The notes beneath the pieces are model-generated. The model searched no databases. It was not told where the DNA came from and worked only from the letters and a program-made list of their open reading frames with translations. The position numbers were made by a program, and so were the translations under genes. From assembly GCA_046290465.1 (NCBI GenBank), contig JBKAGP010000001.1, positions 4,704,001 through 4,768,000 of the forward strand: a DNA stretch of 64,000 bases, written 5' to 3'. Below, piece by piece: positions 37,063 to 44,594 of this stretch (the first letter of the stretch is position 1; every line of letters starts with the position of its first letter). The stretch comes from Planctomycetota bacterium (GTDB lineage Bacteria > Planctomycetota > UBA1135 > UBA2386).

Positions 37063-38190
37063 ATGAAGTCCCTGCTTGCGATCGCGTTCTTCGGAGTCGC
37101 CATGGCACCGTGCCTGTGGGACCGGGACACGCTGGCGACCGAGCTGCGCGGGTTGCCGAAGGCGCTCGACGTCGTGATCGGCAAGTGGCATCGCCACAGC
37201 GAGGCCTACTACCGCGAGCGCATCGAGCGACTGGCCGGCAAGGAACCGCTGACGCTGGCCGAGTGCGACGACCTCGCGGTCGCCTACGAGCGCGTGCACG
37301 ACCGCAAGAAGGCGATCGCGGTGATGGCGAAGAAGGCCGAGCTGCTCGCGGCGACGCCGGACGGCGAACACCAGTACCGCTACCACGCCAACCTCGGCAC
37401 GTTCTACGCGCACACGGGCCGCTTCGACGAGGCGCTGGTCGAGCTGCGCAAGGCGGTCGCGATCAACCCGGACGCGCACTTCGGTCGCGAGATCTTCCAG
37501 ATCGAGCTGATCGAATACATCGCGGCCTGCAAGCAGGACCCGGAGCTGTGGCAGCGCTTCAGCTTCATGCGCCACGCCGGCTACCGGATCGACGCGCACG
37601 TCGGCTCCGGCGGGCTGGTGTACTACCCCGACAACTCGCGCGACTGGGGCAAGGACTGGCGGGGCACGCGCAAGCTCGACCTCGACAAGGCCTGGCAGGG
37701 CATCGTCGGCATGCTGCGCTTCGGCGGGCTCGAAGGTCCCGAGCTCTACCGTTCGCTGGCCGAGTGGTTCCTCGCCAAGGAGCACCTCAACCTCGCGTGG
37801 TGGGCGCTCGAGCGTGCGATCGAACGCGGTCACCCGGCGGCGGACCAGCTGCGCAAGGGACAGAAGGGCATCGAGGCGCACTGGCAGGAGGCCGGCGGCA
37901 GCGCGCCGAAGGCACCGTCGCGCGCCGAGATCGACGCGCGCTGCGCGTGGGCCGATGCCTGGGTTGCGGCGTTCCAGCGGGCCGAGGCGGCCGCGATCGC
38001 GCGTGGTGAGGACGTGCGCAGCGATGCGGCGTTGCAGAAGCTGCTGGCGATCGCGGACGAGGCGCGTCCGGGCGAGGGCGACGATCGGGGCGACGGGGTC
38101 GCCTGGCGTCCGGTGGTGCTCTGGTCCGTCGTCGCCGGTGCTGGTCTACTGGCGGCGATCCTGCTGCTGCAGCGCGCCCGCACGCGATGA
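37063..38190 (+). CDS. Exported TPR-containing protein with C-terminal membrane anchor
   Basis: Signal peptide, CLWDRDTL motif, YHANLGTF...AINPDAHFGRE TPR, C-terminal TM followed by basic residues. Confidence 0.82.
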   Translation: MKSLLAIAFFGVAMAPCLWDRDTLATELRGLPKALDVVIGKWHRHSEAYYRERIERLAGKEPLTLAECDDLAVAYERVHDRKKAIAVMAKKAELLAATPDGEHQYRYHANLGTFYAHTGRFDEALVELRKAVAINPDAHFGREIFQIELIEYIAACKQDPELWQRFSFMRHAGYRIDAHVGSGGLVYYPDNSRDWGKDWRGTRKLDLDKAWQGIVGMLRFGGLEGPELYRSLAEWFLAKEHLNLAWWALERAIERGHPAADQLRKGQKGIEAHWQEAGGSAPKAPSRAEIDARCAWADAWVAAFQRAEAAAIARGEDVRSDAALQKLLAIADEARPGEGDDRGDGVAWRPVVLWSVVAGAGLLAAILLLQRARTR

Positions 38191-38645
38191 CCGAAGAACG
38201 CTACCCCCGCGACCTGCCGCCGTTCTGGTTCTTGATCGGCGTCGGCGCGATGTTCGCGCTGCACCACCTCGTGCCGATCGCGGTGGTGCTGCCGACGCCG
38301 TGGAACAAGCTCGGCTGGGCGCTGATCACGGTCGGCGGGGTGATCGCCCTGCCGAGCCTGCTCGGCTTCCGACGGGCCGGCACGTCGATCAAGCCGTTCC
38401 GGCCGGTGCGCGCGCTGGTCGCCGAGGGCCCGTATCGCTTCACGCGCAATCCGATGTACCTGGCGCTGGTCGTGATGGCGTTCGGCGTCGCGCTGCGGCT
38501 CGGCACGCTTTCCCCGCTGATCGTGCCCCCGGCATTGTTCCTGATCCTCGACCGGCGCTTCGTCCGCCGCGAAGAACGATTCCTACGTGCCAATCTGGGA
38601 ACGGCTTACGACGACTACTGCGGGCGCGTGCGGCGCTGGTTGTGA
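38187..38645 (+). CDS. Isoprenylcysteine carboxylmethyltransferase (ICMT/PEMT) family protein
   Basis: LVAEGPYRFTRNPMYL, EERFL, YDDYCGRVRRWL. Confidence 0.92.
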   Translation: MTEERYPRDLPPFWFLIGVGAMFALHHLVPIAVVLPTPWNKLGWALITVGGVIALPSLLGFRRAGTSIKPFRPVRALVAEGPYRFTRNPMYLALVVMAFGVALRLGTLSPLIVPPALFLILDRRFVRREERFLRANLGTAYDDYCGRVRRWL

Positions 38646-38742
38646 CGCGACGGCGGATTGCCCCCTGACAGCCTCGGCCGAGCCGGGTCCAATGGCCGTT
38701 CGCCTTGCCCTTTGGCGACGCTTCTACAGGAGACCCCTCGCA

Positions 38743-39903
38743 ATGATGAAGCTCTCGTCCTCAACGACGCTCTTCGCAGCCGGCCTGTTGCTCGCCGGCT
38801 CGCTCTCCGCGCAGCGACCGCCGCTGCCAGGCATCCCGATCGTGTCGCCGCCGGTGCCGCACCCGGCGCTCGCCGGACAGCCGCTGATCGGCAACGACAA
38901 CGCCGAGACGGCGACCAGGCGCCCCGGCGTGCGGGTCAAGACCGACCACAAGCCGATGAAGCCGGATCCGGCGACGCGCGGCGTCAAGATCCAGGGCAAG
39001 GACCTCAAGAAGGCGGTCAAGAAGGTCGCCGAGCTGCCGTGGCTCAAGCTCGACAAGGCCAAGGCCGTGTCGAAGAAGACCGGTCGCCCGATCCTGCTGC
39101 TGCAGACGCTCGGCGACATCGACGGCTTTGCTTGAAGCGCTCTCCAGAGCCTGCGGGGCGTGACCCTGCCGAACGACGACATCATCCAGTTCCTCGACGG
39201 CCGCTTCGTGCTGTGCCACCGGAACATCGAGAAGGAAGAGCACGTGGGCATGTCCCACGGCTACAAGAGCAACCAGTCCGCGGTCGGCACGACCAACGGC
39301 GCCGGACCGCGCAACGTGCAGTTCATGGTGCTGGCGGACGACGAGACGGTGCTGCACGCGATGCCGGGGTTCTGGCACGCACAGGACCTGATCAAGGAGC
39401 TGACGCTCGGCCTCGAGATCCAGCGCCTCTACCAGGACGAGCGCCTCGAGGGCGATCGCAAGCAGCAGATGTTCTCGATGCTGCACAAGTCGTTCCTGCG
39501 CCGTCACGGCAAGGACATGGAGCGCCGTAGCCAGTGGCAGGGCTTCGACCGCTGGCACGAGATCCACCGCGTGCAGACCGAGGAGCGCGACACCTTCGTC
39601 AAGAACGGCAAGGGTGAGTACGAGATCAAGACCGTGCCGGAGGTCATCCACGACCGCATGGTGGCGCGGCCGTTCCAGAAGCTGGACGACTTCGATCTCG
39701 AGGCGTTCGTCGACTACGGCCGCCCGTTCTACGACAACAACCACGGCGACCGCGGCAAGCCGTTCAGCAAGGCCGAGCGGGCCAACCGCAAGCGCGAGCA
39801 GGCGCTCGCCGAGGAGCGCCAGGAGCTGGCCCGGCAGCGCGCCAAGGAAGAGCGCGAGCGCAAGCGCCAGGAGCGCAAGAACCGGCGCAAGCAGTCCAAG
39901 TAG
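38743..39903 (+). CDS. Exported thioredoxin-fold SelN-like selenoprotein candidate (in-frame UGA at 39133-39135)
   Basis: Two track ORFs are in frame across one TGA; the joined sequence W.....AKA.SKKTGRPILLLQTLGDIDGFA-U-SALQSLRGVTLPNDDIIQFLDGRFVL is a continuous Trx-like fold; signal peptide. Confidence 0.78.
39153..39169 (+). promoter_or_regulatory. Bacterial SECIS-like hairpin
   Basis: GCGGGG-CGUGA-CCCUGC; 23 nt lie between the UGA and the loop; GU at loop positions 2-3. Confidence 0.55.
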
Positions 39904-39925
39904 CGTCGAATCCCGCCGGCGCGAG

Positions 39926-39963
39926 AACGGTCCTGCCCCGCGAGGGTCAGGACCGTTTTTGTT
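39926..39963 (+). terminator. Rho-independent terminator
   Basis: AACGGTCCTG...CAGGACCGTT stem followed by TTTGTT, directly after the stop at 39903. Confidence 0.85.
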
Positions 39964-39994
39964 GGCGGCGGGCGCTCCGCGTAGGCTGTGGGGG

Positions 39995-40777
39995 ATGAGC
40001 TACGAGACCCTCGAGATCGCGATGGACGGCCCGGTGCGGCACGTCCGCCTCAACCGCCCCGACGTGCGCAACGCCTTCAACGGGGTCGTCGTCGACGAGC
40101 TGACCAGGGCGTTCGCCGAGGCCGACGCCGACGATGCGACGCGCGTCGTGGTGCTGAGCGGCAACGGCAAGAGCTTCTCGGCCGGCGCCGACCTTGCGTG
40201 GATGAAGGAGCAGGCCGGCCTGCCGCACGCCGAGAACCAGAGCAGCGCCGACTACATGGCGCGCATGTTCCTGGCGATCGCGCGCTGCAAGAAGCCGGTG
40301 GTCGGCCGCATCCACGGCCACGCGCTCGGCGGTGGTTCGGGTCTGACCGCTGCGGTCGATCTCGCGGTCTGCACCGAGGATTGCCTGTTCGGGCTGACCG
40401 AGGTCAAGCTCGGCATCGTGCCGGCGGTGATCTCGCCGTTCGTGCTGCAGAAGATCGGCGCCGGGCGCGCGCGCACGCTGTTCTTGACCGGCGAGCGCTT
40501 CGACGGTCGCGAGGCGCAGCGCATCGGCCTGGTGCACCGCGCGGTGCCCGAGGCCGAACTCGATGCGGCGGTGCAGCGCTCGGTCGACGAACTGCTGTCG
40601 GCCGGTCCGGCGGCGGTCGCCAGCGCCAAGGAGCTGATCCGCAGCGTCGCGCACCTGTCGCTCGAGGACGCGATCCCGGTCACCTCCAAGTGGATCGCCG
40701 ACCTGCGCGCGACCGACGAGGCCAAGGAGGGCTTCACCGCGTTCCTCGACAAGCGCAAGCCTGGCTGGATGAACTGA
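39995..40777 (+). CDS. Enoyl-CoA hydratase, methylglutaconyl-CoA hydratase (LiuC)-like
   Basis: LNRPDVRNAF, FSAGADLAWM, LTEVKLGIVPAVISPFV, EAKEGFTAFLDKRKP.W. Confidence 0.9.
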   Translation: MSYETLEIAMDGPVRHVRLNRPDVRNAFNGVVVDELTRAFAEADADDATRVVVLSGNGKSFSAGADLAWMKEQAGLPHAENQSSADYMARMFLAIARCKKPVVGRIHGHALGGGSGLTAAVDLAVCTEDCLFGLTEVKLGIVPAVISPFVLQKIGAGRARTLFLTGERFDGREAQRIGLVHRAVPEAELDAAVQRSVDELLSAGPAAVASAKELIRSVAHLSLEDAIPVTSKWIADLRATDEAKEGFTAFLDKRKPGWMN

Positions 40778-42691
40778 TCAGCCGCGATAGCGCGCCCGTT
40801 CGTGTTCGATCGCGGCCGCCCGGATCGCATCGAGCCGCTGCGGATCGAGCTGCGCGGCGGTCGCGCGGGCCAGCAGTTCGCGCGGGGTCTCGCCCGGCCG
40901 CAGCGCGAGCCGGGCGCCGGCGACGGCCCGTTCGAACGCGACGATCGCCCGAGGCCGTGTCGCGCGCCGCCGCCGCCGCAGCCACCAGCCGCCGCCGATC
41001 GCGACCAGCACCAGGCCGCAGGTCCACGGCCGCCGCAGCGGCAGCGTGCAGGCGGCGTCCAGCCAGCGCGCGCGCGCCTCGTCGTCGAAGCCGGTGACCT
41101 CGGCCCACACCGACTCGAGCCAGCGCGACGTCTCGCTCCAGAAGCCACCGTCGTCGTCGCGGCGGCGCCGCACGTCGGCGGGCGGCGTCGCGTCGAACGT
41201 GTGCCACGAGCCGTCCGGGGCCAGCACCTCGACCCACGCGTGCGCGTCGCGCGACCGCGCGATCATCGCGTCGCCCTGCTCACTGCGTTCGTGCACCAGG
41301 TAGCCTCCGACCAGGCGGCACGGCACGTCCTGCGAGCGCAGCAGCAGGGCCAGCGCGGTGGCGAAGTACTCGCAGTGGCCCGCGGCGCTGCCGAGCAGGA
41401 ACTCACCGAGGTTGCCGGCGAAGCCGGGGCCACCGGGCAGTTCGTAGCGTCGGTTCTCCTGCAGCCAGGCGGCGGCCGCCCGCGCGAACGTCAGGGCGTC
41501 GGCATCGGGTGCCTGCTGGCGCAGGCGCGCGGCGAGGTCGCGCGCGAGCCTCGGCATGCCGTCGCTCGGCAGCGCCGTGAAGTGCCGCCGGGTGCGCGCA
41601 TCGATGCGCGGTGCGGCCTTCGGCTGGGCGAGGCCGACCGTGTAGGTCAGCGGTCCGGCCGGCGCGCCGTCGACCTGCACCACCGCGAAGCCCGCGAACG
41701 ACTTGGGGTCGAGGATCGCGCCGGCCATGCCCTGCGGCGTCACCTGCACCGCGACGAGCGGGGTGGCCAGCCGTTCGGAGGCCTTGTCGTACTGCTTGAC
41801 GGTCAGCGTCGTGTGCACGTCGCCGCGGCTCGGCCGCCACCACGAGCCGTCGCGGTGCCGGTCCCACGGCGAGTCGCTGGCGAACCGCGAGCCGAGCCTG
41901 CCGGCCTCCTGCGGATACCAGGTGCGCCCGTCGAACTCCGAGAACGCGATCGCGCGCCAGTGCGTCGGCACCGCGCCGAGCAGGTGTTGCGGCGCCTCGA
42001 TGCGCAGCGCGATCTCCTCGCCGAGGTGGGCCGCGGTCTCGTTGTCGAGGTCGATGCGCTCGGTCATGCCGGACTGCAGCTGCTGGCCGAACGCGAGATG
42101 GTCCTCGAGCCAGCCGGCCCGCTGGAAGTCGCGCGGCCACAGCACGAACACGGCGCCGGTCAGCGCCGCGATCGCGACCGTGCGCGGCGCGCTGTCGCGC
42201 AGCACCGCCCGCATCGTCGCCGCGTCGACGGCGCGGCTGCGCGCGGTCAGCACGTAGACCTGCAGCGCCGGCACGAACACCAGCGTGTGGCCGGCGAACA
42301 GCAGCGACCACCAGACGTCCGGCGCGAAGAAGCTGGTGACGAACGCGATCAGGAACGAGTTGAAGAACGTCAGGTCGGGCCGCTGTCGGTCGCCGATGTT
42401 GTTGAGCAGGTGCACCTGGCACAGCACCGCCAGCACCAGCCCGTCCTCGAGCATGTGCAGCAGGCCGGTGGTGGTCGCGTGGTGGACCAGCAGCGCGAAC
42501 ACGATCAACACGCCGACGTTCCAGCCGGCGCGGTAGGTCGCCAGGCGCTGCAGGCGCCGCAGCCGCGGCGACGCCAGCGCCAGCGCCCACAGCGGCAGCA
42601 GCAGCGTGGCGGAGACCGCGCCGGTCGCGTGCACGAAGCCGAGGTCGAACAGCGTCAACAGCAGCAGCAGCGGATGCAGGCGGTCGCTCAC
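40778..42691 (-). CDS. Transglutaminase-like membrane protein (DUF3488/TgpA-like)
   Basis: N-terminal TM helices; GHCEYFATALALLLR, HAWVEV, FDATP triad; GTG start overlaps the DUF58 stop. Confidence 0.9.
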   Translation of the reverse strand: MSDRLHPLLLLLTLFDLGFVHATGAVSATLLLPLWALALASPRLRRLQRLATYRAGWNVGVLIVFALLVHHATTTGLLHMLEDGLVLAVLCQVHLLNNIGDRQRPDLTFFNSFLIAFVTSFFAPDVWWSLLFAGHTLVFVPALQVYVLTARSRAVDAATMRAVLRDSAPRTVAIAALTGAVFVLWPRDFQRAGWLEDHLAFGQQLQSGMTERIDLDNETAAHLGEEIALRIEAPQHLLGAVPTHWRAIAFSEFDGRTWYPQEAGRLGSRFASDSPWDRHRDGSWWRPSRGDVHTTLTVKQYDKASERLATPLVAVQVTPQGMAGAILDPKSFAGFAVVQVDGAPAGPLTYTVGLAQPKAAPRIDARTRRHFTALPSDGMPRLARDLAARLRQQAPDADALTFARAAAAWLQENRRYELPGGPGFAGNLGEFLLGSAAGHCEYFATALALLLRSQDVPCRLVGGYLVHERSEQGDAMIARSRDAHAWVEVLAPDGSWHTFDATPPADVRRRRDDDGGFWSETSRWLESVWAEVTGFDDEARARWLDAACTLPLRRPWTCGLVLVAIGGGWWLRRRRRATRPRAIVAFERAVAGARLALRPGETPRELLARATAAQLDPQRLDAIRAAAIEHERARYRG

Positions 42692-43650
42692 GGCGCGCTC
42701 CAGCTGCGCTCGGGCAGCGTGATCGCGTCGCGGCTGCGCGGCGGCGGGGCCGCCGCGGCGGCCAGTGGGGTCGCCTCGGCCAGCCAGCGCAGCGCGGCTT
42801 CGGTGCCGCCGCGTTCGGGGTCGACCAGCAGCTCCGCGTCCTGGCTGCGCAGGCGCACCGGGGCGCCGTGCCGCGCCGCCAGCACCAGCGTGGTCGCGTG
42901 CGACAGCGCGCGTTCGAACGTCGCCTCGTCGCAGCGTCGATCGAGCACGACGTCGACCAACGGCCGGCTGTCGCGTTCGCGCTCCTTGATCACCGCCGTG
43001 CCGCGGCGCGCCGTCGCCTTCCAGTGCACGTCGGCGAGCGCGTCGCCGGTGCGGAACGGACGCAGGCCGGCGAGGCCGGTGCCGCGACCGGGACTCTGGG
43101 CGCCGTCGTCGCCCTCGCCGTTGCCGCGGCCGGTGCCGCTGCCGGGGATCGCGAGCGGCTCGGGGTGGGTGACCAGCTCGCATGCCAGGGGCGTGCGGCA
43201 CGTCGTCACGAAGAAGCCGAACGGGAACTTCGACGTCACCAACGCCTGCTCGAGGCGGCGCACGCCGCGCGGCTGGGGCGCCAGCTGGCCGCGCAGTTCG
43301 GCGTCGCCGACGAGCACCGGGGCGTAGGCGATCTCGGCCCGTTCGCGCGCGAGCGGCAGTTCGATCGCGACGTCGAAACGCGGCCGGCGTCCGCCGTGCA
43401 CGCGCACGGAGACGTCGCGCTGGCCGCCCTCGGCGGCGAGGCCGACGTCGACGGCCGTGACCTGCACGCCGCGCAGGTTGCGCCACGACCACCACGCGCC
43501 GAGCAGCCCGAGCACCGCGCTGAACGCCAGCAGCAGGAAGAACAGGTTGCTGTAGTTGGTCGCCAGGAACGCCAGCTCCAGCGCCGCGAACAGCAGCAGC
43601 CCCTTGGAGCCGAGCGCGCTCGGCCGGATCGCTACGCGCGGTGCGGGCAT
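42688..43650 (-). CDS. DUF58 domain protein
   Basis: SKFPFG, GLRPFRTGD..ADVHWKATAR, VIKE.E. Confidence 0.88.
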   Translation of the reverse strand: MPAPRVAIRPSALGSKGLLLFAALELAFLATNYSNLFFLLLAFSAVLGLLGAWWSWRNLRGVQVTAVDVGLAAEGGQRDVSVRVHGGRRPRFDVAIELPLARERAEIAYAPVLVGDAELRGQLAPQPRGVRRLEQALVTSKFPFGFFVTTCRTPLACELVTHPEPLAIPGSGTGRGNGEGDDGAQSPGRGTGLAGLRPFRTGDALADVHWKATARRGTAVIKERERDSRPLVDVVLDRRCDEATFERALSHATTLVLAARHGAPVRLRSQDAELLVDPERGGTEAALRWLAEATPLAAAAAPPPRSRDAITLPERSWSAP

Positions 43651-43655
43651 CGGGC

Positions 43656-44594
43656 CTAGAGCGGCACCGGCACGTTGGCGAGCACGTCGCGCAGCATCGG
43701 TGCGGCGTCGTCTCCCTGGTGCAGGAACAGGCGGTGCGCGAGCGTCGGCACCGCGAGCGCCTTGAGGTCGTCGGGCAGCACGTAGTCGCGTTCGTCGAGC
43801 AGCGCGCGCGCCTTGGCGGCCTTGATCCAGGCGAGCGCGGCGCGAGGGCTGGCGCCGAGCTGCACGTCCGGATGGCCGCGGGTCGCCTGCACGACGCGCA
43901 GCGCATACTCGGCGACCGGGGTCTGCACCTGGACGCGTTCGCAGCGCAGCTGCAGGTCGCGCAGCTGCTCGGGGTTCATCACCGGTTCGACCTCGCGCAG
44001 CCGCGCCTCGGCGTCGCTGCCGGTGTAGAGCTCGAGCTCGAACTCCGGCGTCGGATAGCCGAGCTCGACGCGGACCAGGAAGCGATCGAGCGCGGCCTCC
44101 GGCACCGGAAACGTGCCGTGGAACTCGATCGGGTTGCGTGTCGCCAGCACCGTGAACGGCTCGCCGAGCCGCTCGGTGCGGCCGTCGATCGACACGTGGC
44201 CGTTCTCCATCGCCTCGAGCAGGCACGACAGCGTGCGCGGGCTGGTGCGGTTGATCTCGTCGGCGAGCACCAGGTTGGCGAACAGCGGGCCGGGCACGAA
44301 CGTGAAGGTGCCCGAGTCCTGCTGCCAGACCGAGGTGCCGATCACGTCGCTCGGCATCAGGTCGTTGGTGAACTGCACGCGGCGGAAGCTGCCGTCGATG
44401 CAGGCCGCCAGCGTGCGGGCCAGCAGCGTCTTGCCGATGCCCGGGATGCCCTCGACCAGCACATGGCCGCCGGCGACCAGCGCGCACAGCAGTGGCTCGA
44501 TCGCAGGATCCGGCAGCTTGACCACGTGGGTCAGGTTGCGAACCAGAAGATCGCGCGCAGAACGCGCGCCCGTCGTTGCAGTGGTGGCCGGCAC
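43656..44594 (-). CDS. moxR: MoxR family AAA+ ATPase
   Basis: GHVLVEGIPGIGKT, RVQFTNDLMPSD, LADEINRTSP, GTFPVPEAALDRF; GTG at 44594 with GGAG RBS chosen. Confidence 0.93.
   Translation of the reverse strand: MPATTATTGARSARDLLVRNLTHVVKLPDPAIEPLLCALVAGGHVLVEGIPGIGKTLLARTLAACIDGSFRRVQFTNDLMPSDVIGTSVWQQDSGTFTFVPGPLFANLVLADEINRTSPRTLSCLLEAMENGHVSIDGRTERLGEPFTVLATRNPIEFHGTFPVPEAALDRFLVRVELGYPTPEFELELYTGSDAEARLREVEPVMNPEQLRDLQLRCERVQVQTPVAEYALRVVQATRGHPDVQLGASPRAALAWIKAAKARALLDERDYVLPDDLKALAVPTLAHRLFLHQGDDAAPMLRDVLANVPVPL

Follow-up and report, generated by a model that had tools for sequence, protein, structure and literature searches.

Sequence evidence for a Planctomycetota selenoprotein family with a lone selenocysteine in a predicted thioredoxin fold

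The DNA analyzed here, hereafter the window, is a stretch of 64,000 nucleotides from a Planctomycetota bacterium (assembly GCA_046290465.1, contig JBKAGP010000001.1, positions 4,704,001 to 4,768,000 of the forward strand), and coordinates given without a prefix refer to it. An open reading frame (ORF) starting at ATG 38743 closes at TGA 39133-39135, and a second ORF, from GTG 39160 to the stop at 39901-39903, lies in the same frame, the TGA being the sole stop between both. Our data indicate that positions 38743-39903 of the plus strand, read through this TGA (386 codons and a stop), are one gene; on the strength of the sequence comparisons, the TGA almost certainly specifies selenocysteine (Sec) and the gene encodes a genuine selenoprotein. 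A preliminary description of this DNA had considered the two ORFs as one frame of 386 amino acids (aa) joined by UGA. Same-frame translation with TGA as Sec agrees with this proposal, yielding 386 aa with Sec at position 131 (U131) in the context ...LLLQTLGDIDGFA-U-SALQSLRGVTLPNDD... (also ...LGDIDGFA-U-). Its suggestion that gene callers had split a single gene was likewise sustained by the conservation of the UGA, the existence of Cys homologues, a covarying bacterial selenocysteine insertion sequence (bSECIS), the presence of the Sec machinery and a thioredoxin-fold model. The gene occurs in a single copy in the genome and contains one internal TGA.

A word-indexed search with the read-through protein retrieved 140 relatives. 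Among the best 120, which were listed, 118 covered only the C-terminal 51-66% of the query and are therefore calls of the 'second ORF'; the two full-length relatives, P0037 (375 aa) and P0048 (442 aa), had a Cys aligned with U131. An exhaustive HMMER search gave 227 matches at E<=0.001, and among the best 150, 42 stopped at query residue 129 or 130 and nine spanned the site. Alignment of 11 site-spanning proteins placed Cys at this position in five (P0037, P0048, P0122, P0123 and P0125), the Cys forms reading ...AC-S-[AGT]... at the site. All family entries with a source name among the relatives listed were named 'hypothetical protein', most of them comprising the C-terminal part only.

The underlying DNA was compared for 60 loci, all taken from species-representative genomes; 54 were labelled with a Planctomycetota lineage and six only as 'bacterium'. 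TGA occupied the aligned codon in 58 of these loci, the exceptions being L037, with TCG, and L061, where the site is absent. A phylum-wide sample of 401 evenly sampled Planctomycetota genomes (288 genera) yielded the family in 50 genomes belonging to 38 genera, for which a selenoprotein family is thereby gained, and all 58 matches contained TGA, down to 26% identity. Tabulation of the residue or codon aligned to the UGA, a check proposed earlier, gave TGA in 95 of 95 aligned homologous stretches covering the site (91 distinct) and rare Cys forms. Sec was found in about 150 independent genes from many Planctomycetota genera, Cys in a handful. As judged from these alignments, the gene belongs to a widespread Planctomycetota selenoprotein family, in which the lone Sec and the marked predominance of Sec forms over Cys forms are unusual. 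This preference, combined with the lone-Sec site, makes the family a good case for studying what selenium does beyond sulfur outside the cytoplasm.

Some members deviated from this general pattern. One locus (L029:2776-5165) carries a Sec copy (TGA 3187) and a Cys copy (TGC 4428) in tandem, 1.2 kb apart. The Cys copy is 82% identical to P0037, and this was the sole tandem pair among the 60 loci; it may represent a selenium-replete/selenium-poor pair. In L061:2900-3500, a paralogue with its own signal peptide is fused directly to the NGAGARNVQ part and has neither strand 1 nor the Sec helix. The matches in two genomes, G038 and G200, contain two TGA codons, the second of which may be another Sec or an alignment artefact.

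The eight codons following the UGA retain their amino acids despite codon changes among the 95 stretches. Ser at +1 is encoded by AGC (69), AGT (21), TCA (3), TCC (1) or TCG (1), Ala at +2 by four different codons, Ser at +5 by AGC, AGT, TCG or TCT, and Arg at +7 by CGG (44), AGA (27), AGG (23) or CGA (1). Switching between the AGY and TCN serine codons calls for selection at the protein level, and the TGA-to-GTG interval, on this codon evidence, evolves like a coding sequence. The putative start of the second ORF, GTG 39160-39162, is the GUG of a conserved SECIS loop, CGUGA (39159-39163); its conservation across the family is explained by this RNA element together with Val140. It was also observed that the codon preceding the UGA (39130-39132) ends in T in 67 of the 95 stretches (GCT 38, ACT 25, TGT 2, GTT 2), in contrast with G+C-rich third positions elsewhere, which may reflect a context effect on Sec insertion.

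The loop just mentioned belongs to a hairpin, GCGGGG-CGUGA-CCCUGC, which the preliminary description had placed with its loop 23 nt past the UGA. It was located at 39153-39169 on the plus strand (stem 39153-39158 with 39164-39169) with the same spacing: the 6-bp stem begins 17 nt after the TGA, and 23 nt separate the A of the UGA from the first loop base. Its assignment as a bSECIS relies on folding, covariation and bSECIS rules. RNAalifold, applied to an ungapped alignment of 58 sequences, predicted the 6-bp stem (columns 30-35 and 41-46) as the only structure. Pair 30-46 was GC in 52 sequences, CG in five and other in one, and pair 31-45 was CG in 43, AU in 14 and other in one; the lone exception in both covarying pairs, L051, forms a shifted hairpin of its own. 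In the CG to AU change, an Arg codon shifts from CGG to AGG and a Leu codon from CTG to CTT, both synonymously, while the GC to CG change pairs the third position of a Leu/Phe codon with a Pro codon becoming Ala, Gly or Val. Covarying pairs therefore link different codons, which indicates a constraint at the RNA level. Stem cells were paired in 94.3% of cases versus 48.8-67.0% when partner columns were slid by 1-3, and the covariation score was 0.194 versus 0.057 in shuffles (0 of 500 reaching 0.194), these pairing and covariation figures being inflated by the relatedness of the sequences, according to the tool's own warning. A second subfamily has another stem at the same place, GAGAGC-CGUGUC-GCUCUC, with GCGAGC/GCUCGC and ACGGGC/GCCUGU as variants.

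According to its published description (PMC13188914), the bSECIS model comprises an upper stem of 4-16 bp that closes a loop of 3-9 nt, a minimum free energy (MFE) of at most -7.5 kcal/mol, a G in loop positions 1-2, often followed by G or U, and a distance of 16-37 nt between UGA and loop. When the stem minimum was raised to 5 bp, these rules were still satisfied by 93 of 96 sequences, all with a loop GU, 23-24 nt past the UGA. The earlier proposal to examine covariation and rule fit was thus answered by compensatory changes at two pairs and by these 93 sequences. The hairpin in the window resembles the consensus in its 6-bp stem, its loop of 5 nt with G at position 2 followed by U, its UGA-to-loop distance of 23 nt and its MFE of -9.9 kcal/mol, all of them within the rules. 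It differs in being a short, minimal hairpin, no conserved lower stem having been found by RNAalifold in the 58 sequences. Two sense-codon forms, the L029 copy with Cys and L037 with Ser, read CGC GGC in place of the CGG GGC of the Sec forms, and the hairpin is not formed. An Rfam scan of 38000-40500 (E<=10) gave chance-level miRNA and snoRNA matches only, none of them SECIS-like. With its natural compensatory variants, this short hairpin offers a ready test set for SelB recognition in Planctomycetota.

The genome, a single contig of 6.59 Mb that is 94% complete, was searched for selA, selB, selC and selD, as had been recommended, and all four are present: SelA (E 1e-109), SelB (353.7 bits, above the cut-off), SelD (352.1 bits), the gene of which adjoins selA, and a tRNA-SeC with anticodon tca. 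SelA was found in 49 of the 50 family-holding genomes versus 290 of 401 overall, these being related genomes and not independent ones. The TGA is kept in contigs of two other DNA studies, X7 (38651-39990) and X14 (38954-39990), and its occurrence in independent assemblies therefore argues that it is not an assembly error. A contig from a seawater RNA library (39020-39177) also crosses the TGA and the hairpin, with zero differences. Two further observations concern the Sec machinery itself. The selD gene (C1:1309619-1311717) has its own in-frame TGA, in the context SSAG-U-AAKLPPG, with a hairpin (loop CGGGC) behind it, and ARAGORN reported a 'tRNA-???' with the four-base anticodon string gatc at C1:4452296-4452383.

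An AlphaFold2 model was computed for residues 86-345 from a 62-sequence alignment, the Pro-rich linker being excluded; it reached a predicted local distance difference test score (pLDDT) of 92.7 and a predicted TM-score (pTM) of 0.91. Residues 86-212 (38998-39378, plus strand) form a predicted thioredoxin-fold domain, delimited with the model, VIA-align and Pfam, and residues 213-345 (39379-39777, plus strand) form a conserved C-terminal helical domain with invariant R262, D269 and R305, as defined by conservation and the model. The preliminary description expected the redox residue after the first beta-strand of a thioredoxin fold. This was observed in the model, where Sec (model residue 46) follows strand 1 (32-37) and begins helix 1 (47-56), so that conservation, Cys counterparts and model position all support the assignment of 39133-39135 as U131. 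VIA-align against 48,161 chains retrieved first the C-terminal domain of an exported cytochrome c biogenesis-related protein (3f9u_B; Z 10.3, root-mean-square deviation 2.7, 109 aligned residues), and also a thioredoxin (2lst, Z 9.3), a domain of a conserved protein from Methanosarcina mazei (3ira, Z 8.2), DsbH (2ju5, Z 8.0), AGR3 (3ph9, Z 7.8) and DsbD-gamma (1vrs, Z 7.3). The top 50 matches were all on the thioredoxin-fold region and nearly all were thioredoxin-fold proteins. Thioredoxin_7 (PF13899) was matched at E<=0.01 by 13 of 62 family members (best 9.3e-6) and, from these comparisons, is a distant relative of the family, which is not a formal member of it. A protein-cluster search with the Cys homologue P0037 led to unnamed 'hypothetical' clusters and, at rank 24, to a Planctomycetota cluster with Thioredoxin_7 in 43% of its members. 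A profile search for longer fused relatives found none among proteins of 775-2210 aa, a weak negative restricted to that size range.

The motif following the Sec is U-S-A-[L/A/G]-[Q/N]-S-L-R, without a partner Cys. All 95 sequences have L, A, G or M at +3, hence no CxxC-type pair, and the alignments contain no invariant Cys elsewhere in the protein, in agreement with the lone Sec without a CxxU or UxxC partner described earlier. The thioredoxin-fold domain also contains a conserved insertion, HVGxSHGY...AVGTTNGAGxRN, between strands 2 and 3. When modelled alone, the helical domain (213-345) had a pLDDT of 87.4, and a structure search with it returned generic helical hairpins only (best Z 7.2 on 54 residues); a claim of a new fold for this domain was considered and is not made, given such matches.

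Bacterial Sec insertion involves SelB, Sec-tRNA and a hairpin within the ORF, and all its sequence prerequisites were found here. The ribosome would read UGA 39133-39135 as Sec, the hairpin at 39153-39169 inside the coding sequence recruiting SelB with Sec-tRNA(Sec) while the UGA occupies the A site. With its predicted signal peptide, the 386-aa product would probably be exported across the cytoplasmic membrane. According to the model, its thioredoxin-fold core would pack against the family-specific helical domain, with Sec131 at the N-terminus of helix 1, the site of the nucleophilic Cys of the thioredoxin CxxC, and no second redox residue. The selenolate may then attack a disulfide, sulfenate or peroxide to give a selenenylsulfide or selenenic acid, and an external thiol could resolve this intermediate, by analogy with CxxS proteins (AGR2) or with glutathione peroxidase (GPx) and 1-Cys peroxiredoxin (Prx). 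The helical domain may shape the substrate site together with the conserved TTNGAGxRN loop that precedes strand 3. Taken as a whole, this explanation (one gene, a SECIS-decoded Sec and a thioredoxin-fold protein that is probably exported) is highly probable. A more precise assignment, as a single-Sec thiol oxidoreductase or peroxidase, is plausible but tentative. Chemistry at a single residue similar to that of GPx or Prx is possible; Pfam gave no match to PF00255 or PF00578, the families of these enzymes, at E<=1. Accordingly worded, the earlier proposal of a periplasmic or secreted selenoenzyme stands as far as the selenoprotein is concerned (UGA, bSECIS and Sec machinery), whereas export and catalysis, like the substrate of the product, are what we infer.

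A bolder possibility, which we consider rather doubtful, is that the family is obligately selenium-dependent and exported and carries out a reaction so far unassigned to any selenoprotein. If so, this would be chemistry poorly done with sulfur, at an active site formed by the thioredoxin scaffold together with a helical domain of no recognised fold, for example periplasmic detoxification of a peroxide, organic hydroperoxide or metalloid, or repair of oxidised envelope proteins.

Several observations weigh against the interpretation of the gene as one encoding a SECIS-decoded thioredoxin-fold redox protein. Considered as a single sequence, the hairpin (-9.9 kcal/mol, z -1.61) is not above chance, 18 of 200 shuffles being equally stable, and because of this the case for the hairpin rests on the comparison with relatives. 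One family-holding genome, G230 (83% complete), had no SelA match. The contig from the seawater RNA library represents presence in that library and not proof of transcription, and the gene parts that such contigs leave uncovered are uninformative. The fold matches are modest: Thioredoxin_7 was the only Pfam family retrieved and stayed below threshold (14.7 vs 27 bits, E 0.035), Foldseek against the PDB gave 3f9u as best match at E 1.3e-3 and none at E<=0.001, and apart from the best VIA-align score of 10.3 all Z values were at most 9.3. The family profile matched AGR2 only weakly (E 0.058), the Sec/Cys column falling on the lone Cys of CPHS and the Gln after this column being matched too. The conserved insertion would end at the site of the thioredoxin cis-Pro loop, beside the active site, by secondary-structure order only. 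At the Sec position, four distant full-length relatives with 29-34% identity carry Ser (P0139), Ala (P0138 and P0188) or Pro (P0152), and locus L037 has the Ser codon TCG; the scaffold thus also occurs in forms lacking a redox residue. Finally, no conserved redox partner gene adjoins the gene among the 60 loci, an upstream gene for a methyltransferase resembling phosphatidylethanolamine N-methyltransferase (PEMT) being found in 13 of them only.

The main alternative concerns the role of the Sec and not its decoding: Sec131 could bind or carry a metal or metalloid (Cu, Hg, As), selenium or sulfur, in a periplasmic binding or transfer protein. A Sec standing alone, without a resolving Cys, would be compatible with such a role, as would conserved His and acidic residues across both domains (H205, H303, D269 and E273), the several Sec metal-handling families in Table 1 of the review PMC13188914, and the overwhelming predominance of Sec over Cys, as would fit a role that depends on the affinity of selenium. 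However, metal-binding families were unmatched in Pfam and NCBIfam, the Sec occupies the classic nucleophile position of the thioredoxin fold, and no transporter or metal-resistance genes are conserved as neighbours. We regard a binding role as unlikely.

The other alternatives bear on the decoding. Standard gene calling leads to two separate genes, the TGA being a true stop and a second protein starting at GTG 39160, and most database entries do correspond to the 240-aa C-terminal part. Such a split would nevertheless sever the thioredoxin fold between strand 1 and helix 1. Moreover, synonymous changes preserve the amino acids of the eight codons from TGA to GTG, each Cys form is one uninterrupted ORF, the GTG belongs to the conserved hairpin loop and the second ORF is without a signal peptide, all of which render two genes very improbable. 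Equally improbable is a decoding of the UGA as one of the standard residues Trp, Gly or Cys through a changed code or read-through, although P0132 and P0134, two of the 11 site-spanning proteins aligned, have W at the site. Among 41 metagenome loci related to P0132 and belonging to the second subfamily, 37 cover the site and all 37 have TGA, reading ...GAT-U-SAGNSLRAVSLS, and the 90% cluster of P0132 also contains 237-aa members beginning at the GTG just after the site; because of these two findings, its W is best explained, at the level of sequence, as TGA translated under code 4. Further points against a standard amino acid are that TGA terminates these very genes in about two dozen listed loci and is thus a stop in these organisms, that the true sense-codon homologues have Cys and not Trp or Gly, and that a SECIS and the Sec machinery are present. 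Both P0132 and P0273 (332 aa) are database proteins in which the Sec TGA was read as Trp, their 237-aa cluster mates being on longer contigs, which suggests gene calling under table 4 on short contigs of low GC content; a few database proteins consequently display Trp wrongly where Sec belongs. That the TGA is a nonsense mutation, marks a pseudogene or stems from an assembly error, for which the presence of the stop is the sole point, is practically negligible in view of TGA in 95 of 95 stretches of independent assemblies, its retention in the DNA contigs of two other studies and purifying selection on both halves. The preliminary description had listed four outcomes that would contradict a selenoprotein gene (Trp or variable residues rather than Cys/UGA at the site, independently occurring halves, a sense codon and missing Sec machinery); each was examined, and none of them applies here.

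Within the thioredoxin fold, the family can be compared with several known systems. It shares with Thioredoxin_7, DsbD-gamma, DsbH, AGR proteins and 3f9u the fold, the placement of the redox residue where helix 1 begins and, presumably, export. Unlike them, it uses Sec in the place of Cys and lacks a second Cys; it also has a conserved insertion of ~30 residues in place of helix 2, and a following helical domain of ~130 residues without informative fold match. AGR2, of the CxxS protein disulfide isomerase family, acts through mixed disulfides; the similarity lies in a single redox residue and in secretion, which is putative here, but AGR2 is eukaryotic, Cys-based and without the extra helical domain. 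The preliminary description had also drawn a parallel with eukaryotic selenoprotein N (SelN), a selenoprotein with a thioredoxin-like region outside the cytosol. In the present protein, the Sec is not in a C-U pair; the SelN name was absent among the relatives listed and SelN from the Foldseek, AGR2-profile and VIA-align structure matches, none of these being a SelN-directed comparison, and the SelN-like label found no support in them. The nearest relatives found are of the Thioredoxin_7/DsbD-gamma/AGR type.

Reports on prokaryotic selenoproteins were compared with the family as far as their text was accessible. PMC13188914 catalogues 119 families or subfamilies of prokaryotic selenoproteins, almost all of them tied to a model from NCBIfam, TIGRFAM or Pfam. 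Its Table 1 includes thioredoxin-fold proteins such as GPx-like (UxxT), Prx (TxxU), arsenate reductase (UxxS) and TsoY (UxxV) proteins and a Trx7/PDZ protein (CxxU, NF041199). Like these, the present family has an active-site Sec and an in-ORF bSECIS, and several of the catalogued proteins likewise have a lone Sec. The difference is that no NCBIfam family was matched at E<=1 (scan of P0001 and P0037: 0 families), nor any listed Pfam family, and the motif U-S-A-x-[Q/N]-S-L-R was not found in the accessible part of Table 1. No description of the family was found in literature on Planctomycetes/Planctomycetota selenoproteins or Global Ocean Sampling (GOS), and 'Planctomyc' is absent from the main texts of the BSepDB, deep-Sep and GOS papers. 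A paper on Planctomycetes selenoproteins (PMC4807772) reports, in its accessible part, other families and one 'hypothetical' in S9, and the corresponding part of the GOS paper contains an unnamed 'Unknown' family and GOS_A, both without models. An earlier sighting as one of these model-less entries (GOS_A, GOS 'Unknown' or S9 'hypothetical') may have occurred. The family is new within a well-known kind of selenoprotein, the model-less candidates not being comparable by sequence.

The remaining features of the gene are all on the plus strand. A Shine-Dalgarno-like AGGAGA (38728-38733), as read from the sequence, lies 9 nt 5' of the ATG. Residues 1-24 (38743-38814) resemble a signal peptide ending in ...SLSA-Q, as the preliminary description had noted; inspection by eye of the N-terminus, MMKLSSSTTLFAAGLLLAGSLSA-Q, is consistent with this, since it combines N-terminal charge with a hydrophobic core and small residues. 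The full-length homologues P0037, P0048, P0122 and P0123 likewise begin with a hydrophobic stretch that ends in AQ. Alignments define a Pro-rich linker (residues 25-85, 38815-38997) with the conserved start RPPLPGIP...PPV.HP, and, at the other end of the protein, a Lys/Arg/Glu-rich tail (residues 346-386, 39778-39900) is variable among homologues according to sequence and alignment. The terminator that had been described after the second half was recovered as a strong intrinsic terminator hairpin at 39921-39965 (-30.9 kcal/mol, z -4.98, 0 of 200 shuffles equally stable), followed by UUUUUGUU. A promoter/terminator consensus scan found no promoter and missed this terminator.

The gene is flanked by genes for a tetratricopeptide repeat (TPR) protein, the PEMT-like methyltransferase, an enoyl-CoA hydratase and a transglutaminase. 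Neighbours of these types were common to six (TPR), 13 (PEMT-like), 15 (enoyl-CoA hydratase) and two (transglutaminase) of the 60 loci; four of the 15 enoyl-CoA hydratase matches were weak (30-34% identity), upstream and on the opposite strand. An operon-based inference of function was considered and rejected, the flanking genes being common to few loci. A large TgpA-like transglutaminase gene (Transglut_core, TgpA_N) is situated two genes downstream, at 40778-43906 on the minus strand. The accessible part of a paper on a Porphyra planctomycete mentions a transglut_core gene within a Sec-insertion operon; since the gene is found in two of the 60 loci only, this link is probably a coincidence. 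Upstream, at 37063-38645, the genes for the TPR protein and for a membrane methyltransferase of the PEMT/ICMT (isoprenylcysteine carboxyl methyltransferase) type share 4 nt, and the pair stops 98 nt short of the selenoprotein gene.

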